Position numbers and translations under genes: made by a program
Notes under the pieces: model-generated
What the model was told of the DNA's origin: nothing
The model's input: only the letters and a program-made list of their open reading frames with translations
The model's database searches: none
In this document: positions 12,308 through 30,429 of the stretch, in pieces
Layout: every line of letters starts with the position of its first letter
Numbering within the stretch: position 1 is the stretch's first letter
Assembly (NCBI GenBank): GCA_018823285.1
Contig: JAHJIQ010000013.1
Span: forward strand, 89,593 to 153,592
Direction of reading: 5' to 3'
From: Pseudomonadota bacterium
GTDB taxonomy: Bacteria > Desulfobacterota > Desulfobulbia > Desulfobulbales > JAGXFP01
Length of the DNA stretch: 64,000 nucleotides

Positions 12308-14149
12308 ATGTGCGGCATTGTCGGATATATAGGAAAAAGAAAGGTTGTCCCGATTCTTCTGAAAGGGCTGAAAAGCCTCGAATACCGGGGCTACGACTCC
12401 GCCGGACTGGTGTATATCGATGAATCCGGCGGACTCAAAAGACACCGCTGTCAGGGCAAGCTTGCAAATCTTGAAGAGGTCATGGAAGAGCTGACTGTTT
12501 CCAGCACCGTCGGCCTCGGCCATACCCGCTGGGCAACCCATGGCCCGCCGTCAGAAGCAAACGCCCACCCGCATCTGGACTGCACCGGGAGACTGGTTGT
12601 CGTTCACAACGGGATCATTGAGAACTTCCATTCCCTGCGCGATGAACTGAAATCACGGGGTCATGTTTTCAATTCCGAAACCGACACCGAGGTCCTGGTC
12701 CACCTGATTGAGGAGTACCTTGAAGACGATCTGGTCGCAGCGGTCCGGCAGGCCCTGAAAAGAGTCGAAGGCGCTTACGCTCTCGGCATCCTCTGGGCGG
12801 ACAAACCCGATGAACTTGTCGCGGTCAGGAACCACAGCCCTCTGGTCCTTGGTGTCCAGGAGGATGGCGGCTCCTTCATGGCCTCCGATATCCCGGCCAT
12901 TCTTCCCTACACCAAGGAAGTGATCTACCTCGAAGACCGGGAACTGGCGGTCCTGAAAGAAGATGGCCTGACCGTCATGAATCTTGACAGCGGCAAACTC
13001 CAGGAAAAAGAAATACACACCATCACCTGGAACGCCGCGATGGCCGAAAAAACGGGCTACAAACATTTCATGCTGAAGGAGATATTCGAACAGCCTCAGG
13101 CGATTTTAAACACCTTCCGGGGACGGATTGATCCGGAAACCGGTGAGGTGAAAATGGTGGAATCGGCGCTGACCGGAGAGTACCTGCGAGGGATCAGAAG
13201 AATTGTGCTGCTGGCCTGCGGCACCTCCTGGCACGCGGCGCTGATCGCCAAATACTGGCTGGAAAAGTGGGCCTCCATTCCCGTTGAAGTGGATATCGCC
13301 TCCGAATTCCGCTACCGCACCCTTCTCATCGATGAATCGGTGATGGTTGTTCCCATTTCCCAGTCGGGTGAAACCGCCGACACTCTCGCCGGAATGAGGC
13401 GCGCCCGAAAAATGGGGGCACGGATCACCGCCATCTGCAATGTGGTCGGCAGCAGCATGACCCGGGAAGCCGACGGCACCATATACACCCACGCCGGCCC
13501 GGAGATCGGAGTCGCCTCGACCAAGGCGTTTACCAGTCAGCTCACCGCCCTGTTCCTGCTTACCCTGATGATCGGAGCGGCCCGGAACACCATCCCGAAA
13601 AACCAAAGGGTAGAACTGATCCAGGGGCTGATCAGCATCCCGGCAGTGATCGAAAATGAGCTGCCGCGCCTTCAGGAGGCCACCGACCGGATGGCCGAAA
13701 ATTTCGTAAAATGCCGGGATTTCATCTATCTCGGCCGAGGGATAAACTTCCCGGTCGCCCTGGAAGGCGCCCTGAAGCTGAAAGAGATCTCCTACATCCA
13801 CGCCGAGGGGTATCCCGCCGGCGAACTCAAACATGGCCCGATCGCCCTGGTCGACCGGGAGATGCCGATCCTGGCCCTCGCCCCGAAGGACAGTGTCTAC
13901 GACAAGGTCATCTCCAATGTCGAAGAGGTCAAGGCCCGTCACGGCAGACTGATTATGGTCGGCAGCAGCGCCGACAAAAACCTGCAGCGCCTGACCGAAG
14001 AGATCATAACCCTGCCCGAGGTGCATGAAGAACTCAATCCGATTCTCTACTCGATTCCGCTCCAGCTCCTGGCCTATCATATTGCAAACCAGAGAGGCTG
14101 CGACGTCGACCAACCCAGAAACCTCGCGAAAAGTGTCACCGTTGAATGA
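12308..14149 (+). CDS. glmS: glutamine--fructose-6-phosphate aminotransferase (isomerizing)
   Basis: MCGIVGYIG N-terminal nucleophile. Two SIS domains (ISQSGETADTL). C-terminal DQPRNLAKSVTVE. Confidence 0.95.
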   Translation: MCGIVGYIGKRKVVPILLKGLKSLEYRGYDSAGLVYIDESGGLKRHRCQGKLANLEEVMEELTVSSTVGLGHTRWATHGPPSEANAHPHLDCTGRLVVVHNGIIENFHSLRDELKSRGHVFNSETDTEVLVHLIEEYLEDDLVAAVRQALKRVEGAYALGILWADKPDELVAVRNHSPLVLGVQEDGGSFMASDIPAILPYTKEVIYLEDRELAVLKEDGLTVMNLDSGKLQEKEIHTITWNAAMAEKTGYKHFMLKEIFEQPQAILNTFRGRIDPETGEVKMVESALTGEYLRGIRRIVLLACGTSWHAALIAKYWLEKWASIPVEVDIASEFRYRTLLIDESVMVVPISQSGETADTLAGMRRARKMGARITAICNVVGSSMTREADGTIYTHAGPEIGVASTKAFTSQLTALFLLTLMIGAARNTIPKNQRVELIQGLISIPAVIENELPRLQEATDRMAENFVKCRDFIYLGRGINFPVALEGALKLKEISYIHAEGYPAGELKHGPIALVDREMPILALAPKDSVYDKVISNVEEVKARHGRLIMVGSSADKNLQRLTEEIITLPEVHEELNPILYSIPLQLLAYHIANQRGCDVDQPRNLAKSVTVE

Positions 14150-14168
14150 TCAGCCCTCATCCCCACGA

Positions 14169-15644
14169 GTGTCGGCGCAGAACTCTAAAGAGCTGTTTTC
14201 CTACAGCGGCGAAGGCCGCCCGGCCGGGCACCTCAATGTGTTTCTGCCGGGTTGGGGCTTTGACGGACGGATCATCACCCTGCAGGAACAGGTCACCGAC
14301 TGGCTGTTCCCGACAAAAGTGATATCCCCCGAGGACACCCTCCGGGCGCTGGCGGTTTATCTTGAGCAATCCCACATCAATTCCGTCACCCTGGTCGGCT
14401 GGTCGATGGGGGCCAATCTGGCCCTTGACTTTGCCGCAAGGCATCCCGACAAAATCGAGGCCCTTTACCTGCTCGGCATCCGCAGGTCATGGCCGGCAGG
14501 GGTCATCAACCAGATCAGGAGCGACCTTCGGCAAGGCCGGAATTCCTTTCTTCATAATTTTTACCGAAAATGTTTTCTCGGATACCGCAAGGCCCACGAA
14601 ACATTTACCACCGACATCGCCCCCTCCCTGCTCACCAACCTGAAAACCGGGATTCTGGAACAGGGTCTTGACTATCTTGGCGATTACAATCTTGAGAATT
14701 CTCTTTCACTCCTTGCCGGAAGCGCCTTTTCAACCCGGATCATTCATGGCGGCAAGGACATTATCGCTCCTCTGAGCGAAGCTCCGCATTCCGCGAGCAT
14801 CCCTCTCACCATCCTTGAGCATGGCGGGCATCCGGTCTTCCTCGACCCGAACTTTCCCTTTCAGCTGCACAACCGGAAAGCATCGATTCACAGCAAATTC
14901 TGCCGGGCCGCCGACACTTACGACGCCCACGCCATCATCCAGAAGGAAATTGCCGTGCGGATGGGAGAGTTGCTGCCGGCCGAAACCCCGGCCAGGATAC
15001 TGGAAATCGGCTGCGGCACCGGAAATTACACGAAAATCCTCCACACCCGCTATCCCGAAGCAGAGATTACCGCCCTTGATTTTGCCTCCGACATGCTCGC
15101 GAGAGCCAGGGCAAAACTTCCCCCGGGAAGTTCCGTCAGATACCTTTGCCGGGATGCGGAGATTTTTCTGAATGAGTCAGAGGAGCGTTTTGACCTGATC
15201 ACCTCCAACGCCACCATGCAATGGTTTGACAATCTTTTGCAAGCCTGCCGCAACATCAGGTCCTTACTCACCAGCGAGGGGAGGATCCTCCTCTCGATCT
15301 TCGGGCCGAAAAGCATGCAGGAAATGCGGGAAGGACTGGGAGCGATCCTCGGCAGAACCGCTCCGCTGCCGTCGACCTGGTTCCCGGACCATGACACGCT
15401 TGCCACAATATTCGGCCCGCTCTGCAGAGACCTTGAGATCAGGGAATGGCAGACCACCAGAGAATACGAAACCTTAAGCGACCTGCTCGAACATATCCGG
15501 AAAACCGGCACCTCCGGCTGGCACCCGGGGCGCCCGCTGCTCACTCGAAGCCGGATGACCGAACTTGAGAGCTGGTTTGTTGGGAAATACGGCAATTGCC
15601 GTACCACCTATCAGGTGTTCCAGATCAGCGGGAAAAGAAAATGA
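14169..15644 (+). CDS. bioC: bifunctional BioH-like alpha/beta hydrolase / BioC-like SAM methyltransferase
   Basis: N-terminal half has the nucleophile elbow LVGWSMGANLALDFA. C-terminal half has SAM motif I (ILEIGCGTGNYTKIL) and the ATMQWF block typical of BioC. It is followed by bioD. The track ORF starts at 14025 inside glmS; the in-frame GTG at 14169 is my preferred start (uncertain). Confidence 0.7.
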   Translation: MSAQNSKELFSYSGEGRPAGHLNVFLPGWGFDGRIITLQEQVTDWLFPTKVISPEDTLRALAVYLEQSHINSVTLVGWSMGANLALDFAARHPDKIEALYLLGIRRSWPAGVINQIRSDLRQGRNSFLHNFYRKCFLGYRKAHETFTTDIAPSLLTNLKTGILEQGLDYLGDYNLENSLSLLAGSAFSTRIIHGGKDIIAPLSEAPHSASIPLTILEHGGHPVFLDPNFPFQLHNRKASIHSKFCRAADTYDAHAIIQKEIAVRMGELLPAETPARILEIGCGTGNYTKILHTRYPEAEITALDFASDMLARARAKLPPGSSVRYLCRDAEIFLNESEERFDLITSNATMQWFDNLLQACRNIRSLLTSEGRILLSIFGPKSMQEMREGLGAILGRTAPLPSTWFPDHDTLATIFGPLCRDLEIREWQTTREYETLSDLLEHIRKTGTSGWHPGRPLLTRSRMTELESWFVGKYGNCRTTYQVFQISGKRK

Positions 15645-15654
15645 GAGTATTCGG

Positions 15655-16335
15655 ATGACGAACAAAGCCCTGTTTATCACGGCAACCGATACCGGAGTCG
15701 GGAAAACCCTGGTCAGCGGCCTGCTTCTGGAATACCTCCTGAGACGTTCCATCAAAGCCGGGTACCAGAAATGGGTCAGCACCGGCGATGCCGATAACCC
15801 GGCCGATCTTGCGGAATGTATGAAAATCGCCGGGGCACAACCGGCGCCGAATGATCTCGACTCACAGGTCCCGTTCCGCTTCAGCTACCCGGCCTCTCCT
15901 CATTTTGCCGCCGAGATTGACGGCAAAGAAGTCGATGCCGGGATGATCCTGCGGAAATTTGCCGAAATGAACAGCAGGTATGAATTTTTAATTGTCGAGG
16001 GAGTCGGCGGTCTGCTGGTGCCCCTCCGCCGCGACCTGCTTCTCGCCGATCTGCTGACCAAACTTGAGCTCCCCACGGTCATTGTCGCCCGAAGCGGTCT
16101 TGGCACCCTGAACCACACCCTGTTGACAATTGAGGCGCTCCGCAACAGGAAGCTGCCGATTGCCGGGGTTATCTTCACCGATCCGGCGGAAGTTGATGAA
16201 ACCCTGGCCCTTGACAACATACGGACCATCGCGGAAATCGGCCGGGTGGAAATCCTGGGACGCCTGCCCTACAGCAACCACCGCCCGGATCTTATCAGGC
16301 ATTTCAGCCTCATCGGCTCCAGGATGGTGAAATGA
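15655..16335 (+). CDS. bioD: dethiobiotin synthase
   Basis: MTNKALFITATDTGVGKTLVSG P-loop, then IVEGVGGLLVP. Start chosen at the ATG at 15655 within the 15565..16335 ORF. Confidence 0.85.
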   Translation: MTNKALFITATDTGVGKTLVSGLLLEYLLRRSIKAGYQKWVSTGDADNPADLAECMKIAGAQPAPNDLDSQVPFRFSYPASPHFAAEIDGKEVDAGMILRKFAEMNSRYEFLIVEGVGGLLVPLRRDLLLADLLTKLELPTVIVARSGLGTLNHTLLTIEALRNRKLPIAGVIFTDPAEVDETLALDNIRTIAEIGRVEILGRLPYSNHRPDLIRHFSLIGSRMVK

Positions 16336-16588: not shown

Positions 16589-18703
16589 GTGCGTCCGGTG
16601 AAGTTGATGGAGAGTCATACCGCTTCGTGTTCAGCAAAAATCATCGGGAATATTGCGTCCTTTTACAGCTCGGTCCGCTCCCGAAAGATTCCCTCATCTT
16701 TTGCCGACGCACGGAAAACCTGCGGCATTATCCAGGGTCTTGCCTCCCTGAAAGAGTCATTAGCGGCGGTAGCGAAATCGCATGAACCCAGCTTCCTGAA
16801 ACTGGGGCAAAACCTCCAGACCATCTACATGAACGCCAACACCCTTGCCGGAAGCACCATCGAGTCGGTCAAGGAAATTTCCGGCGACAACCGGCAAAGC
16901 GCCCTGGCCGGGCTGCGGGACAAAATCCGGATATCCCTGGCCCGAATGGCAGGCGATCAGGCCGCGATCGACAACAACCTGCAGGACCTCGAAACGCAGG
17001 GGCAACATCTCTCAACCCTGACGAACACCAGCCGGGACCTTTACAAAATTGCTTTGTACCTGAAGGTCGCCGGGATCAACATCGGCATTGAAGCAACCCG
17101 CTCCGAAGAGTCGCGGGCCATGTTTTCCCTGACCGCGGAAGAAGTCAGTCAACTCGGGGGCAGGATCATCTCCTTCGCTGAAAATATTGAAGAGGACGCC
17201 TCCCTGGCCCGCAATGTGCAATTGTCGGTTCGGGCGGATATCTCACGGAAACTCGGCAAGTTACGGGAATACGGCGCCGCAGCGGAAACGACCGTCGGGA
17301 ATGCCCTGGCGGTGATTGAGCAACTGCTCCTGAGTACCTCCACAGCCATGGACCAGGCGGCGCTCCACTCCAAATCCATCGCCGCCCATTGCGGCGAAAT
17401 CGTGGTCGGCATCCAGTTCCACGACAGCATGAGCCAACGTCTTGAACACGTCATCGAAACATTTGCTGAAGCAATCACTCTGCTTGCCGATTCCCCTGGT
17501 GAAGACCCTTCGCAGGATCCCCCCCTTCCGCTTGCGGAAAGAATGGCGGCCGCCTACCCCCTCTGCCGGCTCCAGGCCAATCAGATTCAACAGGTGGTTA
17601 CGGAAATCGAATCCCTCCATCAGCAGATATCCCGTTCCTTTGACCTGATCGACCAGATCATCGGGCAGATGGCCGCAGTCCTTTCCGGCCTGTCCGGGGA
17701 CGACCGGGAAGAGCTGTCCGCCCGGCACCCGGGTGACTCATTCGAAAACCTGAAAACCTCCCTCGATGATCTGGTTCTCCTGATGAAACAGGGGGATGAT
17801 CTGATGGAGGATGTCCGCCGGGAGGTCCACGATGCCGCCGAGACCTCCAACCGGCTCCTCTCATTTATGAACAAAGTCAACGCCACGGCGTTTGAAATCA
17901 AGATCCAGGCCCTGAACTCGATCATCAAGGCCGCCCATCTGGGGAACAAAGGGCTGACCCTTGTCGTCCTGGCCCACGAAATTAACACCCTATCCGATAC
18001 CGCAGACACCATTGTTGCAGGGGCGGCGGAAGCGTACCGTCTATTGTCGGACCAGGCGAATAAAAACCTGGTGAACCAGGGAGACGCAGGCCGTGACGAC
18101 ACCTCCCTCAGCACCGCCATCGCAGACATCGAATCCGTCTACGGCCGGTTTAAAACCACCTCGCAATCCGTGGCAGACAAAGCCGAAGCGCTGAGAACCC
18201 TGACCAGGGAAACCAGAACCTCCCTGGATTTCCTGCCGGGCATGGCCGCCCACCTGAATGACTGCCACCGGAAAATGGAAAGCCTCCTCTCCGAGCTGGA
18301 GGAAGAGTGCGGACCTGTCGGCCATGAAACGATCGACGCCGCCATCCGCAATGTTGAGGGCCGCTACACCATGGACCAGGAACGGGTGGTCCATCTGCAG
18401 CTTACGACAGGAATCCCGTCAGAACAATCGCCCATTCAGGCAGATGTCTCCGCCGAACCGGATTCATCGATTGAACTCTTCTCATCCCAGGCGGAAGAGG
18501 ATTCCTCAATCGAACTTTTCGGGACCGACCCCGAAGCAGATTCTTCGGTAGAACTATTCGACGCTCCGCCTGCAGCGGAAAAATGGGAGGAACCACCCAT
18601 CCCCTCGCAGGAAAGCATTGAGCAAAATCGGCCGGCAACGGAATTTTCACAACCGGCCGAAAAGAAGACCGAAGACCTGGGCGATAATGTCGAGCTTTTC
18701 TGA
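16589..18703 (+). CDS. soluble divergent MCP-like chemosensory protein with acidic repeat tail
   Basis: 704-aa ORF with no TM segment. Two segments resemble the MCP hairpin tip (IEATRSEESRAMFSLTAEEVSQL; ALNSIIKAAHLGNKGLTLVVLAHEINTLS). QFHDSMSQRLEHV motif. C-terminal repeats DSS(I/V)ELF x3 plus a terminal DNVELF. It is the first gene of the che operon. The exact start (GTG 16589/16598 or ATG 16607) is uncertain. Confidence 0.75.
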   Translation: MRPVKLMESHTASCSAKIIGNIASFYSSVRSRKIPSSFADARKTCGIIQGLASLKESLAAVAKSHEPSFLKLGQNLQTIYMNANTLAGSTIESVKEISGDNRQSALAGLRDKIRISLARMAGDQAAIDNNLQDLETQGQHLSTLTNTSRDLYKIALYLKVAGINIGIEATRSEESRAMFSLTAEEVSQLGGRIISFAENIEEDASLARNVQLSVRADISRKLGKLREYGAAAETTVGNALAVIEQLLLSTSTAMDQAALHSKSIAAHCGEIVVGIQFHDSMSQRLEHVIETFAEAITLLADSPGEDPSQDPPLPLAERMAAAYPLCRLQANQIQQVVTEIESLHQQISRSFDLIDQIIGQMAAVLSGLSGDDREELSARHPGDSFENLKTSLDDLVLLMKQGDDLMEDVRREVHDAAETSNRLLSFMNKVNATAFEIKIQALNSIIKAAHLGNKGLTLVVLAHEINTLSDTADTIVAGAAEAYRLLSDQANKNLVNQGDAGRDDTSLSTAIADIESVYGRFKTTSQSVADKAEALRTLTRETRTSLDFLPGMAAHLNDCHRKMESLLSELEEECGPVGHETIDAAIRNVEGRYTMDQERVVHLQLTTGIPSEQSPIQADVSAEPDSSIELFSSQAEEDSSIELFGTDPEADSSVELFDAPPAAEKWEEPPIPSQESIEQNRPATEFSQPAEKKTEDLGDNVELF

Positions 18704-18745: not shown

Positions 18746-19093
18746 ATGAAATTGACCATCGAACCGGACGGCAGGCGGGGGACTTTAGTTCTGCGCGGAG
18801 CCCAGACAATCGGGCAGGCGCACGCTTTAAAAGAGAGCCTCCTCGACGCCTTCCAGAAGGTGGAAGAGCTTGAAATCGACATGGACGCCATTACTGAAGC
18901 AGACCTCTCCCTCCTGCAGCTTCTCTGCGCCGCGCACCGGACCTCCCAGGAACTCCGGAAAAAGCTTTTCATAAAAAGGCGCTGGCCGGAAGTCCTGGAA
19001 AAAACGGCCGGATCCGCCGGCTTTTTTCAGCACCGGCGCTGCCAGTTCAATCTGGAAAACGATTGCCTCTGGCGGAAGGAGGGAGGCGAATGA
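18746..19093 (+). CDS. STAS-domain protein (anti-sigma-factor-antagonist-like)
   Basis: 115 aa. LVLRGAQTIGQAHALKESLLDAF....ELEIDMDAITEADLSLLQLLCAA fits the STAS/SpoIIAA fold pattern. GGAGGA RBS. Its stop overlaps the cheY start (ATGA). Confidence 0.75.
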   Translation: MKLTIEPDGRRGTLVLRGAQTIGQAHALKESLLDAFQKVEELEIDMDAITEADLSLLQLLCAAHRTSQELRKKLFIKRRWPEVLEKTAGSAGFFQHRRCQFNLENDCLWRKEGGE

Positions 19094-19458
19094 GCAAAAC
19101 CATCATGACCGTCGATGATTCGGCAAGTGTCCGGCAAATGGTCAACTTTACCCTGAGCGGGGCCGGATACGGCGTTATCGAGGCGGAACACGGCAAGGAC
19201 GCCCTCGCCAAGCTGAAAGCGGCCACGGTCAATATGATCATCACCGACCTGAACATGCCGGAAATGGACGGTATTGAACTGGTCCGCGCCGTCAGAAACG
19301 ATCCCGCCCTGAAATTCATGCCCATCGTGCTCCTGACCACAGAATCCCAGGACACCAAGAAGCAGGAAGGCAAGCAGGCCGGCGCGACCGGCTGGATCGT
19401 CAAGCCGTTCAAACCCGAGCAACTCCTCGGGGTTGTCAAAAAAATTATCGGCAGCTGA
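19090..19458 (+). CDS. cheY: chemotaxis response regulator CheY
   Basis: MSKTIMTVDDSASVRQMV...MIITDLNMPEMDGIELV...TTES...GWIVKPF is the single-domain REC with a CheY-like signature. Confidence 0.9.
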   Translation: MSKTIMTVDDSASVRQMVNFTLSGAGYGVIEAEHGKDALAKLKAATVNMIITDLNMPEMDGIELVRAVRNDPALKFMPIVLLTTESQDTKKQEGKQAGATGWIVKPFKPEQLLGVVKKIIGS

Positions 19459-19485: not shown

Positions 19486-21615
19486 ATGGATCCACATCAA
19501 ACCGCATACCTGGAAGAAGCCAAAGAACTTCTTGTTGAACTGGAAACCTCGTTGCTGGAGCTCGAGGACACCCCCGATGATCAGGAGCTGATCGGGAGGG
19601 TCTTCCGGGCGCTGCACACCATTAAAGGGTCCGGCGCGATGTTCGGCTTCGACCGGATCGCCGAGTTCACCCATCAGGTGGAAACCGCCTTCGACCTGGT
19701 CCGGTCCGGGAAAATCCCGGTCACCTCCGAGATGATCAACCTCACTTTACGGGCCCGGGACGAGATCAAGGCCATGCTTGAAGAGGCGGAAACCGGCGAG
19801 ACAACGGACCCCGGTTCCGCCGAGGAGATCATCAATGCCTTCATCGCCCTGACCACCGGCGCAGCACCTCCCGCACCGGAGCCCCCGCCCCAGCTTCCTC
19901 CGGCCGAAAACGTCCGGCCCGGGATCATTGCTCCGGATCGGCCGGAGATCAAAGGAAGATTGACCACCTTCAGGATTCTGTTCAAGCCCCGGCGGGAAAT
20001 TCTCCAGACCGGCACCAATCCCATCCTCCTGCTCGATGAGCTGAATGCCCTCGGCGAATGCACGATCATCGTCAATAATGAAAAGATCCCCTCACTCCAC
20101 ACCATCGATACCGAGCAGTGCTATGTGAGCTGGGAAATCCTGCTGACCACCGACCAGGGAATCAACAGCGTCAGGGATGTCTTCATCTTTGTCGAAGACC
20201 TGAGCGAAATCGTGATCGAGGTGCTCGAGGAAGATCTCGATTCCCTGGATGACAGCCAGCAGAAGAGACTCGGCGAAATCCTGATTGAACGCCGTGAAAT
20301 TTCAGCTGAAGCGCTGACCGCCTGCCTCGACAAGCAAAAAAGGATCGGCGAGGTCCTGATCGGCGAGAAACTGATCAGCAACCAGGCCGTTGCCAATGCC
20401 CTGGCCCAGCAGCAGCATTCTTCCAGAGTGCTGAAAAAACAGAAAGAGCTTGCCGAAACTTCAACGATCCGGGTGGAGGCCAATCGTCTGGACAAGCTGG
20501 TCAATCTGGTCGGGGAACTGGTCACCCTGCAGGCCCGCCTGGGCCAGAAGGCCTTCCGGGAAAATGATCCCGACCTCATCTCAATCTCCGAGGAGGCCGA
20601 CCGCCTGACTTCGGCATTACGGAACAATGCGATGAGTATCCGGATGCTGCCCATCGGCAAGACCTTCAGCAAGTTCCGCCGGCTGGTCCGGGACCTCTCG
20701 AAAAACCTCGGCAAGGAGATCATCCTTACCACCGAGGGCGAGGAGACCGAACTGGACAAAACCGTCATCGACAAATTGAATGACCCCCTGGTCCATCTGA
20801 TCCGGAACTGTATCGATCACGGCATCGAACTGCCGGAGGAAAGGATGCATGCGGGCAAAGCAGGCCAGGGGACCATCCATTTAAAGGCTTTCCATTCCGG
20901 GGCCAATGTCTTTCTGCAGATCACCGATGACGGCAAAGGCCTCGACTGCAAGGCGATTCATGCCAAGGGGGTCGAAAAGGGCATCATCCAGGCGGATACC
21001 GTCCTGGCCGAGAAAGAACTCTTCGCCCTCATCTTCGCGCCTGGATTTTCCACCGCCAAAACCGTCTCGGATGTCTCCGGCCGCGGCGTCGGCATGGATG
21101 TGGTGAAAAAGAACATTGACGCCCTCCGCGGCACTATCGAAATCGAAAGCCGGCAGGGCTCCGGGACCACGGTCACCCTCAAACTGCCCCTGACCCTCGC
21201 GATCATCGACGGGCTTCTGGTGCAGATCGGGAAGGGCTTTTTCGTCATCCCGCTCTCCGCAGTCGAGGAATGCCTGGAGGTCACAAGAACGGAGGCAAAC
21301 CAGGCCCTGGAAAGGAGCATGCTCTCCTCCCGGGGGGAAATCCTCTCCTATATCAGCCTGCGCCGGCTGTTTTCCTGTCACGACACCCCTCCGCCCCTGG
21401 AAAAGATCGTGGTGATCGAGGAAAACGGCCACCGGATCGGCCTCGGCCTCGACAGCGTCATCGGCCAGCACCAGACCGTGATCAAGGGGTTGAGCAAGGT
21501 GTATCAGAATGTGAAGGGCCTTTCGGGGGCAACCATCCTCGGCGACGGCACCATGGCCCTGATCCTCGATATCCCGCAACTGGCCCAATGCGTGAAATCA
21601 GAACCGCCATTGTGA
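19486..21615 (+). CDS. cheA: chemotaxis histidine kinase CheA
   Basis: Hpt domain (FRALHTIKGSGAMFGF). Dimerisation/HATPase blocks (HLIRNCIDHGIE; DDGKGLD; GRGVGMDVV; GSGTTVTLKLPLTLAI). C-terminal CheW-like domain. It also contains tandem T2SSE_N/MshEN-like motifs at 20266..20412. Confidence 0.95.
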   Translation: MDPHQTAYLEEAKELLVELETSLLELEDTPDDQELIGRVFRALHTIKGSGAMFGFDRIAEFTHQVETAFDLVRSGKIPVTSEMINLTLRARDEIKAMLEEAETGETTDPGSAEEIINAFIALTTGAAPPAPEPPPQLPPAENVRPGIIAPDRPEIKGRLTTFRILFKPRREILQTGTNPILLLDELNALGECTIIVNNEKIPSLHTIDTEQCYVSWEILLTTDQGINSVRDVFIFVEDLSEIVIEVLEEDLDSLDDSQQKRLGEILIERREISAEALTACLDKQKRIGEVLIGEKLISNQAVANALAQQQHSSRVLKKQKELAETSTIRVEANRLDKLVNLVGELVTLQARLGQKAFRENDPDLISISEEADRLTSALRNNAMSIRMLPIGKTFSKFRRLVRDLSKNLGKEIILTTEGEETELDKTVIDKLNDPLVHLIRNCIDHGIELPEERMHAGKAGQGTIHLKAFHSGANVFLQITDDGKGLDCKAIHAKGVEKGIIQADTVLAEKELFALIFAPGFSTAKTVSDVSGRGVGMDVVKKNIDALRGTIEIESRQGSGTTVTLKLPLTLAIIDGLLVQIGKGFFVIPLSAVEECLEVTRTEANQALERSMLSSRGEILSYISLRRLFSCHDTPPPLEKIVVIEENGHRIGLGLDSVIGQHQTVIKGLSKVYQNVKGLSGATILGDGTMALILDIPQLAQCVKSEPPL

Positions 21616-21690
21616 AATAAAGGAACAGAGAGAGAGTCCACCAACAATATTAATGACAACATCCAACAACCACATCCGGGAGTATTGAGC

Positions 21691-23763
21691 ATGAAGATCA
21701 ACGACATTAAAGTCAGCGTAAAACTCATCGGCGCCTTTCTCATTGTCGCACTCATCGTTGCCATCGTCGGGGTGACCGGCCTGATCACCTGCAACAATGT
21801 CGGCAAAGCGACCGACATCATCCTTGATGAACAGGTCCCCCTGGCGGATGCGACCATGGAGAGCTCCATCGCCCTGATCAGCACCCGGGACCTGATGGGG
21901 GAATTCCTCCTCAATGACAGCAAGGAGACTCTCGATCAGGCCGCCATGGAGTTTGAGAACAATATCAAAAAGCTGCAGGACCAGCTTGCCTTCCTGAAAA
22001 ACAACGGCAACGACGCAATCAAGGAGGCCGTCTCCCAGGCCGAATCGCAGGTGAATCAGTACATCACCGCCGGTCACTCCCTGATGGCCGAACACCGGGA
22101 GAAACTTGCGAAAACCATGGACCGCCAGGCGGCCATGGAGAAACTGGACGCGGAAATCGACTCGATCAAGGAATCCCTTGCAAAATACGAGGAAACCTTG
22201 ACCAGAAACAAGGCAATTGACGAAAAAGTCGATGCGGCCATGGAATCAAAAACCATTATTGTCGAACAGCAGGCCATTGTCGAAGAGTTCATGAGCATCA
22301 GGACCCTTGAAGAATCGTCAGCGCTGCAGCTGTCCTTCAAGGATATGGAAAAACAATTCGACAAGCTGGAGCATCTCCTGCCCAAAGAAACCACCAGGGA
22401 ACACGCCGCATTTTCAGAGAATGCCCACAAAATTTTCAAACTTGGCGCAGAAATCGTGCAGCTGAATACGAACACCAGAACCCAGATGGCCCAGGTAGAC
22501 GAGTTGAGCGGCAAGAGCATCGACCTTGCCGGCAAAATGGAGGAGATTGCCGGCAAAAACATGCAGCTGGCCATGGAATCCGCCGACAGTTCGCAGGGCA
22601 AAGGGCGCTGGATCATCGGGATCATGACCTTCTTGAGTTTTGCCATTGCCTTTCTCCTTGGTTTTTCCCTCTCCCGGCATATTTCCGTGCCCCTGCTGGA
22701 AGCGGTGGATGTCTCGGGGAAACTCAGCAGGGGAGACTTGAGCGTTGAGATTGAAATCAACAGAAAAGACGAAATCGGTCAACTGCTCACCGCCATGAAA
22801 AACATGGTCGCCAAGCTGCGGATGGTGGTCGGCGATGTCTTAAGCGCTTCGAGCAATGTCTCTTCCGGCAGCCAGCAGATGAGTTCGAGCGCCGAAGAGA
22901 TGTCCCAGGGCGCCACGGAACAGGCGGCCGCCGCCGAAGAGGCATCGTCCTCCATGGAAGAGATGGCCTCGAACATCAGCCAGAATGCCGACAACGCCCT
23001 CCAGACCGGCAAGATCGCCGGCAAATCAGCCGAAGACGCCCTCGAAGGCGGCAAAGCGGTGACCGAGACGGTAGCCGCCATGAAGCAGATTGCCGAAAAG
23101 ATCTCGATCATCGAGGAGATTGCCCGCCAGACCGACCTGCTGGCCCTGAACGCCGCCATCGAAGCCGCCCGGGCCGGCGAACACGGCAAGGGCTTTGCGG
23201 TTGTCGCCTCGGAGGTCAGGAAACTTGCGGAACGGAGCCAGACCGCGGCGGGCGAGATCAGCAAGCTCTCCTCCTCCAGCGTCGAAATCGCCGAACATGC
23301 CGGCACCCTGCTCACTTCCCTGGTGCCGAATATCCAGAAAACCTCCGAGCTGGTCCAGGAAATCAGCGCCGCCAGCAATGAGCAGAACACCGGGGCCGAC
23401 CAGATCAACAAGGCAATCCAGCAGCTCGACCAGGTCATCCAGCAGAACGCCGCCGTCGCCGAAGAGATGTCCTCCACTTCCGAGGAGCTGGCCAGCCAGG
23501 CGGAAATGCTGCTTGAGACCGTCGGCTTCTTTAAACTCGACGACCAGGGTTCCGGCCAGATCCGCGGCGAGAGAAGCTATCATCATCAGCATCACACCCC
23601 GCCGAAAAAGACGGCAAAAAGGCAACAGATCGCCCATGTCCCCCATAAAGAAAGCCATGAAGATCCGGCTCAGGGACAGAGTGGAGCAAAAGGTTTTGAA
23701 TTCAACCTCGGCCATGAAGGACCTGCCGGAGACCAGATGGACAATGATTTTGAAAAATATTGA
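21691..23763 (+). CDS. methyl-accepting chemotaxis protein (two TM segments, large helical periplasmic domain, HAMP)
   Basis: Canonical tip [39 protein letters not shown]1 ([21 protein letters not shown]), TM2 ([20 protein letters not shown]) and HAMP. Long unstructured tail ending DFEKY. ATG at 21691 preferred over the TTG at 21685. Confidence 0.95.
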
Positions 23764-23848
23764 AACGGCGTTCACCGCGGATTCCGAAAATGTTCCGGGC
23801 CAACACGCCCGGAACCGCCATTCACATATTTTTTAGGAGAATGTCACC

Positions 23849-24355
23849 ATGAGTGAATCATCTTTGTATCTCACCTTCCGCCTGGAAGATGAACTTTTTG
23901 CCGTGGATGTTTCCCAGGTCCGCGAGGTGCTTGATGTTGCCGCCATCACCAAAATCCCCCGCGCCCTTGATTTTATGCGGGGCATCATCAATATCAGGGG
24001 CACCGTGGTGCCGGTCATCGATCTGCGGACCAAATTCGGCATGACCGAAACCAGACAGACCCTCGATTCGCGGATCGTGGTCATGGAAATCGATCTCGAC
24101 GGCGAGACAACCCTGATCGGGGCGATGGCGGACTCGGTCCATGAAGTCCTCGAACTGGACCGTGACCAGATTGAACCCCCGCCCAGACTCGGCTCGCGCT
24201 GGCGCATTGAATTCATCAAGGGTGTCGGGACCCGGGATGAGGAATTCATCCTGATCCTCGATATCGACCGGGTGTTCTCCGCCGAAGAACTGACCAGGAT
24301 TTCCGCCGTCGACACCAGCGCCCAGGCGGCGCCGGTGGACGATGAAAAAGAGTGA
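23849..24355 (+). CDS. cheW: chemotaxis coupling protein CheW
   Basis: 168 aa. YLTFRLEDELFAVDVSQVREVL......IP....F..G.INIRG.VVPVIDLR is the CheW pattern. Confidence 0.9.
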   Translation: MSESSLYLTFRLEDELFAVDVSQVREVLDVAAITKIPRALDFMRGIINIRGTVVPVIDLRTKFGMTETRQTLDSRIVVMEIDLDGETTLIGAMADSVHEVLELDRDQIEPPPRLGSRWRIEFIKGVGTRDEEFILILDIDRVFSAEELTRISAVDTSAQAAPVDDEKE

Positions 24356-24450
24356 TTGGGACGGGGGTGATCGGTTTGCCGGCGTCATCCAATCCATCCC
24401 CGGCGCTTTCCCAAAAAAGCGAATATGCCGCCGTATCCGCCCCGGAGGCC

Positions 24451-25281
24451 ATGAATGACCGCCTGTTTGCCCGCTTTCAGGCGGTCATCATGGACAAGCT
24501 GGGCATCAAGATCACCAGTGCCAAAAAAACCATGCTCCAGTCCCGCCTGTCGAAGCGGTTACGGTTACGGGGGCTTAAATCCTACGAGGAATATTTTGAT
24601 CTCCTCTTCAAGTCCCCGGCAGGCAGGGATGAAATCCAGGCATTCATAGACGTTATCACCACCAACAAGACCGATTTTTTCCGGGAGCCGCACCATTTCG
24701 ACTATCTCGCCCGCAATGCCTTTCCGCAGATCGTCGGCGGCGGGCGGAGTCTCGACCTGCACCGGGGGATCAATCTCTGGAGTGCCGGTTGTTCCTCGGG
24801 AGAAGAGCCATACACCATAGCCATGGTCGCCAACGAGTTTTTCCGCCTGCGCCAAAATCTCCGCTATACCATCTATGCCAGCGACATCTGCTCCACCGTT
24901 CTCCGGAAGGCCAGAACTGCGGTTTATCCACACCACACCGCAGCACCCATCCCGGTTGACCTGAAAAAAAAATACCTGCTGCGCAGCAAGGACCGCAACA
25001 ATGACCAGGTCAGAATCATTCCGGAACTCCGGGCGAAAATCCGGTTTCTGCAGCTCAACTTCATGGACGACGAGTACCGTCTGCCGACCAAGGTCCAGGT
25101 GATTTTCTGCCGCAATGTCATGATCTATTTCGATCAAGAGACCCAGAAAAAGGTCCTGGCCAGGATGTGCCGCGAGCTTCTGCCGGGCGGCTATCTTTTT
25201 GTCGGGCATTCCGAAACCCTTACCGGCCTCGGGCTGCCTCTGGTTTCCGTCGGCCCTACCATCTACAGGAAGATCACATGA
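24451..25281 (+). CDS. cheR: chemotaxis protein methyltransferase CheR
   Basis: TTNKTDFFREPHHF, NLWSAGCSSGEEPYTIAM, IFCRNVMIYFD. Start chosen at the ATG at 24451 (GGAGG upstream) within the 24352..25281 ORF. Confidence 0.9.
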   Translation: MNDRLFARFQAVIMDKLGIKITSAKKTMLQSRLSKRLRLRGLKSYEEYFDLLFKSPAGRDEIQAFIDVITTNKTDFFREPHHFDYLARNAFPQIVGGGRSLDLHRGINLWSAGCSSGEEPYTIAMVANEFFRLRQNLRYTIYASDICSTVLRKARTAVYPHHTAAPIPVDLKKKYLLRSKDRNNDQVRIIPELRAKIRFLQLNFMDDEYRLPTKVQVIFCRNVMIYFDQETQKKVLARMCRELLPGGYLFVGHSETLTGLGLPLVSVGPTIYRKIT

Positions 25282-25883
25282 GCCCGCGCAATTCTTGTGT
25301 GTCGCAGATCTATCTCAAACCGGCGATGATTTTCTTCGATGCCTCGCCGGCCTGCGTTTCCACGGTGCTCGGCTCCTGTGTGACCCTCACCATGCTCGTT
25401 CGCCGGCTCGAGCTGGCCTCGGTCTGCCACGCCCAGCTCCCTTACTGCAAAACGCCGGGGTCTTGCGCCACCACCTGCAGCGAAAAATATAAATTTGTCG
25501 ATTGTGCGATTACCCGCATGTTGGAAAGCTTTACCGGTTGCGGCGCCGCTCTTTCGGAAATAGAAATCAAGATCTTCGGCGGCGCCGACGGCATCAGGGG
25601 GGACACTCCCGGCGGGCAGTCGATCCGGATCGGCAAAATGAATATCGAAGCAGCCATCCGGACCCTGCGGCAACGGGAGCTGAAACCGGTCAGCGGAGAT
25701 GTCGGCGGGTCAAGAGGACGGAAGATTTACTTCCTCACTCCCACGGGTGACGTCTGGTCTAAAAAACTCTCGGCGGGGGAGCCCTGTCCCAGATACCCGG
25801 AAAATGTCGGCCATCAAAATATCACCCTGGGCGGATTCACCATCTGCCCGGCCACGCAGCAGCAGGATTTCAATTTTTTATAA
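25278..25883 (+). CDS. cheD: chemoreceptor glutamine deamidase CheD
   Basis: VSTVLGSCVTLTM....ASVCHAQLP, then EIKIFGGA and GGSRGRKIYF blocks. ATG at 25278 overlaps the cheR stop. At about 200 aa it is longer than typical CheD. Confidence 0.8.
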   Translation: MSPRNSCVSQIYLKPAMIFFDASPACVSTVLGSCVTLTMLVRRLELASVCHAQLPYCKTPGSCATTCSEKYKFVDCAITRMLESFTGCGAALSEIEIKIFGGADGIRGDTPGGQSIRIGKMNIEAAIRTLRQRELKPVSGDVGGSRGRKIYFLTPTGDVWSKKLSAGEPCPRYPENVGHQNITLGGFTICPATQQQDFNFL

Positions 25884-26978
<1,095 letters not shown>

Positions 26979-27113: not shown

Positions 27114-28184
27114 TTAGTTCGCCCTGATTTGCGGGGCCAGGCTCGCCATCTTGATCTGCATCAGCGTGGGATTACAATCCGGTGCAACCAGGGCAACCAG
27201 CAGGAACTCCCCTTTGCTTCCGGCGCTGCGTGTGGCCAGGGTGCCATCGGTCGACTCCAGGACAATGGAGTCGCATTTTTCCAGTCCGTTTTCGGTTGTT
27301 GTCTGTGACGCCAGCCTGAACAGGTCGGCAATAACCGTCCCGCCGCTGTTGAGGTCGATCGAATTCCCGTTTTTCTCCTCCGCCAGCAACACCCCATTCC
27401 TGTGCAGGATTGCTGCCCCGATATATCCCGCCACTTTTGCCAGCGCCCTGAATATCCCGGCCTGCGGCAATTCCTTTTCTTCCGGCTGGGTCACGGCCCG
27501 GCTTGCGGTTTCATCTTTTCTGCGGCTTGCCTCGAGCAAGAGCCCGACATAGCTCTTTTCAATGCTCAGGACCGGGGGCCTGACATTCCTCCTGCTTTCG
27601 ATATTGCCGCCCCCAAAGGCCATAATCCGGTAAAAAGCCTCCTCTCCTTCAATATCACCGGCAATGGCGTGGACAATATTGCCGCTGTCGAAAAATATCA
27701 TCCCCGATTTTTTTCCGTCACGGATCTTGAGCGCTACAGTATTGCACGACAGGCAATTGAGCTGAATCATGTCTGAGAGCTCAATACCGGCCATGGTACC
27801 GGTAAAGCCTTTCTGTTCGGTCAGAGCCTCGATCACGCTACCACGTAAGAGCTCGATATCATAAGGTTTTTCAATAAAACGAAGACATCCGCCGAGGAGC
27901 GCGTCGCGTTTTATTTCAGCAGTCGGGAAGGCGGTCATTACAATAAAAGCAAGGTCCGGGACTATCGCCGATGCCGCCAGAATCAGTTCCATGCCATTCA
28001 TTCCCGGCATATGAACATCGGTGATCAGGAGACTGATACCTTCCTTTTCAATGATCGACAGCGCCTCTTCGCCGGAGGAGGCGGTGATGATTTCGGCATT
28101 GATCTCTTTACAGTCAAGGCTTAAGGCGAGAATTTTAAGCTCCTCGATCTCGTCGTCTACCAGTAATATTTTTTTCATAGGCAT
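27114..28184 (-). CDS. response regulator with REC, PATAN (DUF4388) and Roadblock/LC7-like domains
   Basis: REC domain (KKILLVDDEIEELK...LLITDVHMPGMNGMELI). DUF4388-like block (GIELSDMIQLNCLSCNTVALKIRDGKKSGMIFFDSGNIVHAIAGDIEGEEAFYRIM). C-terminus resembles Roadblock/MglB (VAGYIGAAILHRNGVLLAEE...). Start ambiguous (28178, 28184 or 28187). Confidence 0.8.
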   Translation of the reverse strand: MPMKKILLVDDEIEELKILALSLDCKEINAEIITASSGEEALSIIEKEGISLLITDVHMPGMNGMELILAASAIVPDLAFIVMTAFPTAEIKRDALLGGCLRFIEKPYDIELLRGSVIEALTEQKGFTGTMAGIELSDMIQLNCLSCNTVALKIRDGKKSGMIFFDSGNIVHAIAGDIEGEEAFYRIMAFGGGNIESRRNVRPPVLSIEKSYVGLLLEASRRKDETASRAVTQPEEKELPQAGIFRALAKVAGYIGAAILHRNGVLLAEEKNGNSIDLNSGGTVIADLFRLASQTTTENGLEKCDSIVLESTDGTLATRSAGSKGEFLLVALVAPDCNPTLMQIKMASLAPQIRAN

Positions 28185-28417
28185 CACCCGATATGTGCAT
28201 GCAACAGCAGATAAAACTTTATGTAATCAGACAAACATTTCCGACCCGACAGGGATTTCAACAGCCTCCCAGAGGACTCCCGGGGGAAGATCAGCCCATA
28301 CCCGGAAAGACTTTTGCCGAACATTTTCCTGATTATAAAAGGATATTACGCACTCCACAGAAGTGTCAAGAATTGAATTCCCGAAAAGACTCTTTTGACC
28401 TGTTTGAACCCATGCCT

Positions 28418-28533: not shown

Positions 28534-30429
28534 ATGCCACTTAAAATCAATGACCCTTCTTCTCTCTTTGGCTTGAACCGCCTGAACCAGACTCACAAAA
28601 CCCTTTCCAGTTCGCTCGAGAAACTTGCCACCGGCAGCCGCATCAACCGGGCTGCGGATGACGCCTCGGGCATGGCCATTGCCGATGCCCTGGAAAGCCA
28701 GCGAAAGGGATACGTCCAGGCAATCCGCAACGCAACCGATGCGATCTCCATCACCCAGACCGCAGACGGCGCGATCGGCGAAATGACCAGTATTCTCCAG
28801 GAGATCCGGACCAAGGCGATCCAGGCCGCTTCCGACAGCCAGTCCCGAGACTCACGCCAGGCCCTGCAGGCGGATATCAACCGATACCTTGAAGGGCTGG
28901 ACAATATCGCCAGGACCACATCCTACAACGGCCAGAAACTTCTGACCGGCCAGTTCGCAGGGAAATCGTTTCAGGTAGGCGCGGTTTCCGGGGAGACCGT
29001 GCAGATCAGTATCGGAGATATCAGTCTTGGAAAACTCGGCGGAGGATCCGATTCCGGCGATGGAGAACAGGTCTCGCGCACCTATCTTGCCTCGCCCCTG
29101 ACCCTGCAGAATCCCCTGACGACCAGCGCCGAGTCAAGCCTTGAACCGGGTTCAACGTTAACAGCGCGGACGGAACTCGCCGCCGGGTCCTCCCTCGGGT
29201 TCGCTCTGGACAGCGTCAATCTGGGCGCCGATATTTCGACAACCGGCGAATCAGCTCTCGCAGCCGGTTCTACCCTTGGGGCGGGGAGTGTTATCGCAGG
29301 CGGCACAGAGCTCGGCGGCACAGTCACGCTTGCCGCCGACACGACCACAAGCGGGGTGAACACCATTGCCACCGGCTCGACTCTTGCCACCGGGACCATT
29401 CTTGCCGCCGGGACCGTCTTGAGCACCGACATAACCAGTGGCGGCACAACGTATTCCTCCGGGCAGCCCCTTGCCGCAGAGGTCACCCTGACCCAGGACG
29501 CAGCGATAACCGCACCATTGCACCTCGGCCCGGGATCATCCGTCGCCGCCGGCAGCTCCCTGGCCGGAGGTTCCGCCATATCCGGCAATATCACCCTGGC
29601 CGCCACCGCAACCATGACCGGCCCGGCAGTTTTGAAAAGCGGTTCAATCATCGCGGATGCTGCGGGAACAAACATTCTGTCCGGCTCAAGCATCGGAGGC
29701 CGGCTGACTCTTGCCGCCAACACCTCCGTTATCGGGAAGATGACCGTTGCCGCAGGCTCAGAGATCGAGGCGGGGAGCCTCCTTGGGTCAGGATCATCCG
29801 TGGGTGGTCCGGTCGTCACAGGGACCCCGTTCACCCTTGACAACACGATGCACATCGGTGCGGGGTCTCTGCTGGAATCAGGATCGGTACTCAAGGCGGG
29901 AACAGTTCTGGGAAGCGGGGTCAGCGTGGCCGGAGGGCAATCTCCGGGAGCCGGGACCGTCCTGACCGGCGATGTCGTCACCGAGGGCCGGAATTACCTC
30001 GATTCGGGAACGATCCTCGCAAAAGGCTCGACCCTGGCATCCGGCTCAACCATTGCCCCGCAGACATCACCTGTTACTACTGCCGGAGACAGCAGGCCCT
30101 CAGGATTCAGCCGGCTTGCGGAAATCGATGTGACTTCCATGGAAGGCGCCCAGGCGGCCATCGGCGCAGTTGACGAAGCGCTGTCCCAGCTGAACCGGAC
30201 CAGATCGGGCCTCGGCTCCACCCAGAATCAGCTGGTCTCCTCCATCACCAACCTGTCGGTCACCATGGCCAACACCGCAGCCGCCGGATCGACCATTGCC
30301 GATCTGGACTTCGCCGAGGAATCGACCCTGCTCAACAACTTCCAGATCCTGCTGAAAGCGCAGGTGTTCGCCCAGGCTCAGACCAACCGGATCAGAGGCA
30401 GCAATGTCATGAGTTTATTGCAGGGATAA
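28534..30429 (+). CDS. fliC: flagellin with expanded hexapeptide-repeat central domain
   Basis: N-terminal D0/D1 (LEKLATGSRINRAADDASGMAIADAL; ISITQTADGAIGE...ILQEIR). C-terminal D1/D0 (LGSTQNQLVSSITNLS....IADLDFAEEST.L...QIL.QA...AQAQ). Strong RBS GGAGGA. The central ~330 aa is G/S/T/A/L-rich with 6-residue periodicity. Confidence 0.85.
   Translation: MPLKINDPSSLFGLNRLNQTHKTLSSSLEKLATGSRINRAADDASGMAIADALESQRKGYVQAIRNATDAISITQTADGAIGEMTSILQEIRTKAIQAASDSQSRDSRQALQADINRYLEGLDNIARTTSYNGQKLLTGQFAGKSFQVGAVSGETVQISIGDISLGKLGGGSDSGDGEQVSRTYLASPLTLQNPLTTSAESSLEPGSTLTARTELAAGSSLGFALDSVNLGADISTTGESALAAGSTLGAGSVIAGGTELGGTVTLAADTTTSGVNTIATGSTLATGTILAAGTVLSTDITSGGTTYSSGQPLAAEVTLTQDAAITAPLHLGPGSSVAAGSSLAGGSAISGNITLAATATMTGPAVLKSGSIIADAAGTNILSGSSIGGRLTLAANTSVIGKMTVAAGSEIEAGSLLGSGSSVGGPVVTGTPFTLDNTMHIGAGSLLESGSVLKAGTVLGSGVSVAGGQSPGAGTVLTGDVVTEGRNYLDSGTILAKGSTLASGSTIAPQTSPVTTAGDSRPSGFSRLAEIDVTSMEGAQAAIGAVDEALSQLNRTRSGLGSTQNQLVSSITNLSVTMANTAAAGSTIADLDFAEESTLLNNFQILLKAQVFAQAQTNRIRGSNVMSLLQG

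Follow-up and report, generated by a model that had tools for sequence, protein, structure and literature searches.

A double-hairpin chemoreceptor relative at the head of a che operon

The window analysed here is a 64,000-nucleotide stretch of contig JAHJIQ010000013.1 from a Desulfobulbales bacterium (GenBank assembly GCA_018823285.1), and it carries a chemosensory operon whose first gene (16589..18703; all features lie on the + strand unless stated) encodes a soluble relative of methyl-accepting chemotaxis proteins (MCPs) with two receptor signalling hairpins in one chain. Judged by Pfam domains, the order of the operon is double-hairpin gene-STAS-CheY-CheA-MCP-CheW-CheR-CheD-CheB. A first-pass annotation, made by a model from the letters of the sequence, had seen a CheD but no CheZ, CheC or CheX in this operon, and the Pfam domain scan agrees; a single-sequence search for these three elsewhere in the window, which is a weak test, returned none. 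The open reading frame (ORF) is a real gene, with 704 aa when read from GTG 16589 or 698 aa from ATG 16607. Because the identical NCBI protein, MBU0479578.1 (named 'MAG: methyl-accepting chemotaxis protein'), has 698 aa and 133 of 155 homologues begin at the methionine of ATG 16607, this ATG is probably the true start rather than the GTG, and the sequence 5′ of it is compatible with a start at that position. The listed GTG adjoins a purine run, AGGGAGA (16589-16609). As had been noted at first pass, the protein has no transmembrane helix (maximum 19-residue Kyte-Doolittle mean 1.13), and the three protein segments quoted at that stage, aa 158-192, 276-288 and 435-473, are exact translations of the DNA.

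Two of these segments had been likened to the hairpin tip of MCPs, and both are genuine MCP-tip homologues. Family profiles of the N-half (aa 36-300) and the C-half (aa 315-610) were aligned by hhalign with a profile of 48 canonical MCPs. The N-half matched with a probability of 97% (E 5.7e-11) and with its tip in register, the C-half matched with a probability of 98.7% (E 2.7e-16), and the two halves matched each other over 238 columns, again with the tips in register (98.5%, E 4e-15). The protein is securely a soluble chemoreceptor derivative with two tandem full-length signalling hairpins that arose by internal duplication, and the profile searches placed it in no characterised family with one ordinary signalling domain. 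Single-sequence searches detect the second tip only, with matches to PDB chemoreceptors down to 1.8e-5; Pfam MCPsignal (PF00015) covers aa 400-486 of the window protein at 1.5e-7 and 31.8 bits against a gathering score of 34.6, and relatives reach 46-69 bits, above that score. Two tips in one chain had also been called unusual, which needs correction: DosM of the F9 systems is a published precedent (PMC7534058, PMC9321776), but the gene context here is not that of F9.

An AlphaFold2 (AF2) monomer model built from 136 sequences (mean pLDDT 83, pTM 0.68) likewise consists of two helical hairpins, with turns at 170-172 and 451 and with arms of about 130 residues each, as long as those of an entire receptor cytoplasmic domain of 36-38 heptads. 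Hairpin 1 (aa 36-300; 16694..17488) comprises helices 36-98 and 105-169, the turn at 170-172 and helix 173-300, mostly at pLDDT above 90. Its N-arm carries a stripe, E66-F69-G73-L76 (aa 58-86; 16760..16846), that is conserved in the family alignment and that hairpin geometry, namely the distance to tip 1, would place opposite the CheZ-like block described below. Tip 1 (aa 158-192; 17060..17164) is collinear with the canonical tip, and its N164, E168, R171, F179 and E185 are the equivalents of Tsr N381, E385, R388, F396 and E402. A Pro-rich linker (aa 301-314; 17489..17530), variable in the alignment and visible in the model, leads to hairpin 2 (aa 315-607; 17531..18409), which is delimited by the model, hhalign and PDB MCP matches. 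Its predicted helices are 315-369, 384-450, 452-495, 505-574, 579-590 and 596-607, with the turn at 451, and it begins with a stripe conserved across the family, L-Q329-x-x-Q332-L (17561..17617). Tip 2 (aa 435-473; 17891..18007), located by Pfam, PDB matches and alignment, contains the invariant residues N443 and G455. N443 is the equivalent of Tsr N381, with the glycine turn kept and with K447, H450 and L458 in place of E385, R388 and F396; the two tips have diverged asymmetrically.

Helix 4 is followed by a near-invariant cap motif, R-Y-T-M-x-x-E-R-x-[IV]-H (aa 592-602; 18362..18394), a short helix after a Pro/Gly break that is conserved like the tips (Y593, E598 and R599 above 97%). No known family or function matches this motif, and a likeness of RYTMxxER to the N-helix of CheZ (YVVQMTAQAAER) was dropped, as Pfam coordinates do not support it. 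In the 136-sequence alignment no methyl-accepting E/Q-E/Q pair with A-S/T context is conserved, and the protein is probably a receptor relative that is not itself methyl-accepting. When the AF2 model was compared with the PDB by Foldseek, only weak, generic matches to long coiled coils and MCPs were obtained; the model deviated by 22 Å rmsd from the folded elbow of cohesin and by about 100 Å from extended Tsr. The high pTM, the pLDDT above 90 and the lower rmsd to folded cohesin hint that the modelled hairpins lie alongside each other with their tips at the same end, imitating a receptor dimer within a single chain, and not end to end as in DosM. Such an arrangement could also be an artefact of monomer prediction.

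Family conservation, the CheZ-like block and the C-terminal peptide

The protein belongs to a large family. An exhaustive profile search retrieved 2,358 cluster representatives at E<1e-30, of which the best 150 are all full-length, and a genome scan located relatives in 299 species. These are mostly Desulfobacterota (Desulfobacteraceae, Desulfobulbaceae, Geobacteraceae, Desulfuromonadales, Syntrophus, Syntrophobacter, Syntrophorhabdus and Desulfovibrionaceae), with scattered hosts among Planctomycetota, Lentisphaera, Ignavibacteriales, Synergistia, Bacillota and Vulcanimicrobiota. Members are annotated at source as 'methyl-accepting chemotaxis protein' or 'hypothetical', NCBIfam holds no model specific to the family, and we found no description of it in the searchable literature. 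Conservation was assessed on 155 representatives with less than 50% mutual identity. Q276, D279, Q283 and N443 are invariant in all 155, H287 is 98% conserved, and H278 is 92% conserved, with Q in eight members and Y in three. The conserved blocks are tip 1, tip 2, aa 264-292, E66-F69-G73-L76, L-Q329-x-x-Q332-L, aa 592-602 and the C-terminus, and the block at aa 264-292 is as conserved as tip 2. Segments 58-86, 264-292, 325-343 and 592-602 map to the tip-distal ends of the hairpins and are rich in His, Glu, Asp and Gln.

The block at aa 264-292, IAAHCGEIVVGIQFHDSMSQRLEHVIETF (17378..17464), lies at the tip-distal end of hairpin 1 and, in alignments, resembles CheZ. It contains D279-x3-Q283 (17423..17437), which the first-pass annotation had compared with the catalytic pair D143/Q147 of E. 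coli CheZ and which hhalign, hmmsearch and Pfam coordinates all align with that pair. The bare DxxxQ pattern is not beyond chance (4 against 2.3 expected), but the D and Q are invariant among orthologues and the likeness spans about 15 aligned positions. The family consensus is E270-I-V-V-[G/A/S]274-I-Q-F277-[H/Q]278-D279-x-[M/T]-x-Q283-x-I285-x-x-[I/V]288, and its counterpart in E. coli CheZ is E134-I-M-M-A138-Q-D-F141-Q142-D143-L-T-G-Q147-V-I149-K-R-M152. According to published work, the signature of the CheZ family as a whole is A-x-x-F-Q next to D-x-x-x-Q (PMC7750401). This A-x-x-F-Q-D-x-x-x-Q context recurs in the double-hairpin family, where G, A or S occupies position 274 in 124 of 136 sequences, F277 is present in 77%, H278 in 93%, and D279 and Q283 in 100%; seven or eight members with Q278 have an exact FQDxxxQ. 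The CheZ register is identical across the three alignment methods.

We scanned 39 isolated segments of about 105 aa one by one against 24,736 Pfam families. Pfam CheZ (PF04344) was matched by 15 of the 39, and every other family by at most two. The best segment match had an E-value of 8.6e-7 and 29.5 bits, against a gathering score of 30.7, and covered profile positions 89-152. In the same profile, residues 17-214 of E. coli CheZ span positions 3-203 with D143/Q147 at about 129-133, and the D and Q of the family also fall at positions ~129-133. At full length, the relative P0025 matched CheZ at 1.3e-6 and 28.9 bits (positions 80-153), as its second family after MCPsignal, and the relative P0073 did so at 0.0014; precomputed public annotation places PF00015 together with PF04344 on P0025, P0285 and P0291, three of 120 relatives. 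Conversely, a profile of the family segment scored E. coli CheZ at 11.1 bits, a value that was attained once in 3000 global shuffles and never in 3000 window shuffles, with reversed CheZ reaching 2.6 bits at most (p ~3e-4). Among ten tiling segments only 236-300 behaved in this way (1/3000 and 2/3000), and all others gave p >= 0.007. By these comparisons the likeness of the block to CheZ is significant and specific and extends over about 60 residues, but falls short of demonstrating a CheZ domain. The helix that carries the block can also be aligned both to I..A(S)xEQxxGIxQV, a motif conserved in the C-arm of ordinary MCPs, and to the corresponding helix of hairpin 2. Therefore, the CheZ-like site is embedded in a receptor-homologous helix. 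Heptad analysis of this helix puts I271, I275, H278, I285 and I288/289 in a hydrophobic stripe and V272, Q276, D279 and Q283 on a flanking face.

Beyond the hairpins, the model and the alignment define a disordered acidic tail (aa 608-704; 18410..18700) that closes with the peptide KTEDLGDNVELF (18665..18700); in the model, disorder runs from residue 608 to residue 696. Its logo, (D/E)4-[L/F]-G-D-N-[V/I]-E-L-F-COOH, describes the terminus of 151 of the 155 members, in which the second residue of the last five, N-[V/I/F]-E-L-F, is V in 116, I in 28 and F in 7. Asp and Glu make up 29% of the disordered tail, whose median length, counted from RYTMxxER, is 52 residues. Extra internal copies of the motif occur in a third of members; the window protein has three (DSSIELF, DSSIELF and DSSVELF) besides the terminal one, the [IV]ELF cores of these D-S-S-[IV]-E-L-F copies lying at 18470-18481, 18509-18520 and 18548-18559. 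Across 80 loci, 74 of 82 family ORFs carry the tail motif and all 508 other che ORFs lack it. The motif is unlike the [ED]F[EK][KR][YF] pentapeptide that ends 42 of 53 complete MCPs in related loci, including the DFEKY of the window MCP. The presence of two distinct terminal motifs within one system implies that each has its own partner. The layout of the tail, an acidic disordered stretch followed by a near-invariant Phe-ending peptide, is that of CheZ, without profile similarity. A resemblance of GD[NS][VI] to the N-terminus of FliM was dropped as coincidence. As to the MCPs, those ending in [ED]F[EK][KR][YF] carry a 34H-type CheR/CheB-tethering pentapeptide, and the CheR proteins of these clusters do not have the three glycines of the E. 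coli pentapeptide pocket (K-K-Y-L-L-R-S-K-D-R versus Q-R-Y-F-M-R-G-T-G-P).

Gene neighbourhoods

The gene next to the double-hairpin gene in the window is a STAS gene, similar by Pfam to anti-sigma-factor antagonists (18746..19093), and it is followed by a cheY with a single receiver domain (19063..19458), whose product is the proposed substrate. The TTG listed as the start of cheY lies 31 nt inside the STAS gene, and the true start is probably further downstream. The rest of the operon, from cheA through cheB (19486..26978), was assigned by Pfam as cheA (19486-21615), an MCP with 4HB and HAMP domains that ends in DFEKY (21685-23763), cheW (23849-24355), cheR (24352-25281), cheD (25167-25883) and cheB (25896-26978). 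The CheW has 168 aa and one domain. CheA has Hpt, dimerisation, ATPase and CheW-like domains, and no P2 (CheY-binding) domain is detectable by Pfam in aa ~103-325, the 220 aa between P1 and P3; if P2 is truly absent, docking of CheY near the array might need another protein.

For the family as a whole, gene order was counted in 71 loci with enough downstream sequence, drawn from 80. A cheY lies within 1.6 kb downstream of the family gene on the same strand in 64 of the 71 (90%), and a STAS gene within the same distance in 44 (62%), where it adjoins the family gene. An arrangement upstream of STAS-cheY-cheA, raised at first pass as a possible constant of the orthologues, is the commonest order (39/71), but others occur too and the pairing with cheY extends more widely. 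For example, the order is family gene-cheY-STAS-cheA in four loci (Geobacteraceae, Malonomonas and Pelovirga), and several Desulfobacteraceae have family gene-cheY-cheW/cheB with no adjacent STAS or cheA and nevertheless keep the tail motif. The divergent subfamily of P0015 has the order REC-family gene-STAS-REC-CheA. Clustering of unassigned ORFs in the 80 loci yielded no recurrent CheC or CheZ, and CheX was confirmed in two of the 80. The clusters carry CheD and 34H-type pentapeptide MCPs, a content that corresponds to the F7/F8 types of the published classification.

Directly upstream of the family gene in six loci (for example L018, 9445-9879) is a 144-aa ORF family without a Pfam match, which is absent from the window. 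In several clusters (L083-L085 and six others, for example L003, 6117-6740), cheA is followed by a CheR-like gene of ~200 aa and a gene of the metallo-beta-lactamase fold, which stand in place of the full cheW-cheR-cheD-cheB set; in L083-L085 the family gene is also preceded by a REC gene and one for cytochrome P460. In the window itself, the gene right after cheB lies on the opposite strand (27114-28187, - strand) and combines REC, DUF4388 and Roadblock/LC7 domains, and its product could serve the che system as a partner in output or regulation. Next comes a flagellin gene (28534-30429; 631 aa) with Flagellin_N (aa 14-140) and Flagellin_C (aa 543-629). The variable central region of the protein matches hexapeptide-repeat or left-handed beta-helix models (Hexapep and LbH_EIF2B, aa ~397-468), an unusual insert for a flagellin. 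The presence of this gene beyond the operon makes a link of the che operon to flagellar motility plausible. The upstream genes (12308-16335) are metabolic: a GlmS-like gene (GATase plus SIS), a fusion of alpha/beta-hydrolase and methyltransferase (14025-15644), and an AAA_26 gene (15565-16335) whose product resembles dethiobiotin synthetase. They have no relation to the che operon and could form a set for biotin synthesis.

Candidate roles and relation to known systems

In the reading we favour, the double-hairpin protein would be an array-docking phosphatase of the CheZ type for phosphorylated CheY (CheY~P), with a tail that recruits CheY~P, a proposal that we find as easy to believe as to doubt. 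The strong selection on both tips makes it most likely that the protein docks onto the CheA/CheW array of the F7/F8-type system encoded downstream, or becomes part of it. That the tail binds CheY and that the protein is catalytic are inferences, as would be any part played by the STAS protein, and the mechanism we propose is as follows. The tail peptide, of which the window protein has four copies, would capture CheY~P as the C-terminal peptide of CheZ does; D279 and Q283 would enter the active site of CheY and place the water molecule for hydrolysis, like D143 and Q147 of CheZ; and the signal would be terminated close to where it is made. An array-resident phosphatase or scaffold had already been suggested in the first-pass annotation, and the tips, the invariant D/Q pair and the family-level likeness to CheZ now speak for it, with the function itself still a proposal. 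Two further observations fit a CheZ-like role, namely the near-invariant C-terminal peptide behind its acidic linker and the presence of cheY downstream in 90% of loci.

A number of results weigh against a CheZ-type function. The window protein's own segment has no Pfam CheZ match, and most relatives miss the Pfam CheZ gathering score of 30.7 bits. Alignment by hhalign with the shallow enteric CheZ profile was weak (E 0.025-0.09, probability at most 2%); this profile is shallow in that the search with E. coli CheZ gave enterobacterial sequences only, at 79% identity or more. When PDB sequences were searched with the family-segment profile, CheZ was not retrieved and TALE repeats (VVAIASHDGGKQALETV), a chance match, ranked first, and therefore matches of the HD...Q type can arise by chance. 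Matched control segments from hairpin 2 gave CheZ matches with E-values of 0.011 and 0.065 in a different part of the profile. These define a noise floor, so the count of 15 in 39 includes noise and its weaker part is discounted. Given its alignment with the C-arm motif of MCPs, the CheZ-like block could be structural, and it is heptad reasoning that suggests a partly exposed D279/Q283 pair. The tails have no CheZ match in Pfam and no profile likeness to the CheZ C-terminus. Finally, the near-invariant residues H287, Q329, Q332, Y593-H602 and E66 are not explained by the mechanism of CheZ.

The conservation of H287, Q329, Q332 and Y593 through H602 would be better explained if the protein is a structural or sensory receptor with a double signalling domain like DosM, one that would stabilise or nucleate a cytoplasmic array or act as a single-chain dimer mimic. 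In such a receptor, FHDxxxQ, Q329/Q332 and RYTMxxERxxH would form a polar junction or a ligand- or metal-binding cap and would not be catalytic. This accords with the two complete MCP hairpins and their conserved tips, with the precedent of DosM itself (PMC7534058, PMC9321776), with the tip-distal position and the His/Glu/Asp/Gln-rich composition of segments 58-86, 264-292, 325-343 and 592-602, with the alignment of the block to the MCP C-arm motif, and with a CheZ similarity that is sub-threshold in Pfam for most members. It would, however, leave unexplained the CheZ-specific match, which only one of ten segments gives in shuffle tests, as well as the conserved tail peptide and the tight pairing with cheY, and the gene context is not F9, having no triple CheW and having STAS-cheY-cheA downstream; F9 itself is present in only 2 of 54 Desulfobacterota. 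We regard a DosM-like role as the main alternative, possible rather than probable, and it is not exclusive of a phosphatase.

The tail and the D/Q pair can each be read in another way. The C-terminal peptide might be a variant of the CheR/CheB-tethering pentapeptide and recruit adaptation enzymes to the array without acting on CheY. Indeed, the succession of signalling domain, flexible linker and terminal pentapeptide is that of pentapeptide MCPs, N-V-E-L-F shares N, E and F with N-W-E-T-F (PMC2577667), and cheR, cheD and cheB are in the operon. Known tethering pentapeptides nevertheless need an aromatic residue at position 2, as in xWxxF or x[FY]xx[FY] (PMC2577667), where the family has V or I, never Trp or Tyr, and Phe in 7 of 151. 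Moreover, 42 of the 53 MCPs in related loci already have a bona fide [ED]F[EK][KR][YF], the double-hairpin protein has no conserved EE/EQ methylation pairs, and its tail motif persists where cheR is not nearby, all of which makes a tethering peptide improbable in our view. As for H278-D279-x3-Q283, it could be a HisKA_3-type H-box in which His278 takes up phosphoryl groups and serves as a phosphate sink or as a step of a phosphorelay, in place of a CheZ-type hydrolysis. H-D-x-x-x-Q is the motif of that family, for example H399-D-S-I-A-Q in NarX (PMC3510030), and the block does sit on a helical bundle. Yet Pfam gives no HisKA_3 or HATPase_c match, an ATPase domain is absent, about 7% of members have Q, Y or R in place of H278 while the D and Q never vary, and the heptad analysis puts H278 in the hydrophobic stripe. 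Homology to HisKA_3 was rejected, as hhalign does not align the block with the H-box of the NarX DHp domain, and a phosphoryl-accepting His278 appears very improbable to us.

A CheZ-type phosphatase in this position would matter because signal termination is unresolved in many chemosensory systems. Geobacter genomes and their relatives are without cheZ, for Geobacter as judged by BLAST (PMC2577667), and F7/F8-type clusters carry no phosphatase gene (PMC7184735). With thousands of members, the family is a testable candidate for the missing phosphatase of sulfate- and metal-reducing bacteria, one that brings together array-docking receptor tips, an invariant D/Q site of the CheZ type and a docking peptide of its own. 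If it is a phosphatase, CheY phosphatases would come in a fourth architecture besides CheZ, CheC/CheX/FliY and CheW:CheZ, one placed inside the array by design. The conformational changes that control CheA could then also switch a CheZ-type site on a receptor signalling helix. Such a phosphatase would also bear on the origin of CheZ, in that a CheZ-like block on a helix homologous to the MCP C-arm would make the family a living intermediate in the emergence of CheZ from a chemoreceptor hairpin. The full proposition, that the family is the missing CheY~P phosphatase of CheZ-less F7/F8-type systems in Desulfobacterota and scattered phyla and that CheZ descends from a chemoreceptor hairpin, is one we put forward tentatively and consider doubtful as it stands. 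Should the phosphatase not be confirmed, the family would still define a second and much more widespread lineage of double-signalling-domain receptors outside F9/DosM.

Among known systems, DosM (V. cholerae VC1403) was compared through its published description and gene context. It has two signalling domains in one soluble chain and spans two baseplates in F9 arrays (PMC7534058); F9 systems are of class 44H, pair DosM with a triple CheW in the order DosM-W3-B..R-Y-A, and occur in 2 of 54 Desulfobacterota (PMC9321776). Like DosM, the double-hairpin protein is soluble, has no sensory domain, contains tandem MCP signalling domains and is encoded in a che cluster. In contrast to DosM, its gene order in the window continues with STAS-Y-A-M-W-R-D-B, with a single-domain CheW, a CheD and 34H-type MCPs, and without a triple CheW. 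Ancestral F7 clusters begin with STAS-cheY-cheA and contain no cheZ (PMC7184735), and the F7 'stage 1' clusters (V. cholerae cluster III and M. alcaliphilum) share with the window the series STAS-cheY-cheA...cheR-cheD-cheB and the lack of cheZ. They differ in their Aer2-like 36H and McpA-like receptors, and no double-hairpin protein has been described upstream of their STAS.

The resemblance to CheZ comprises the active-site motif [A/G/S]-x-x-F-[Q/H]-D-x-x-x-Q with its flanking E-I-hydrophobic-hydrophobic and an I at +6, a long antiparallel helical hairpin, a disordered linker, a short conserved Phe-ending C-terminal peptide and a gene paired with cheY. Unlike CheZ, the protein is about three times larger and built of MCP-homologous hairpins; the similarity covers ~60 residues only and stays below the Pfam gathering score, nearly reaching it in a few members. 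In addition, the residue before the D is His in 92% of members where CheZ has Gln, there are extra invariant motifs without a CheZ counterpart, and the tail GDNVELF is not recognisably the CheZ peptide DDLLDSLGF. In NarX, a HisKA_3 protein, a DxxxQ directly after the His of a bundle helix is needed for dephosphorylation of the response regulator (PMC3510030). The family shares with NarX an acid and an amide four residues apart, directly after a His and on a bundle helix, and differs from it in having no detectable homology and no kinase domain. According to the published chemosensory classification, F17 systems contain a CheW:CheZ fusion, in which, as proposed here, a CheZ module is joined to a receptor-array protein; there it is a recognisable CheZ domain on CheW, whereas here the CheZ-like block lies inside a receptor-type helix. 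The proposal made here joins two known kinds, the double-domain receptor and the CheZ-type site, in one family.

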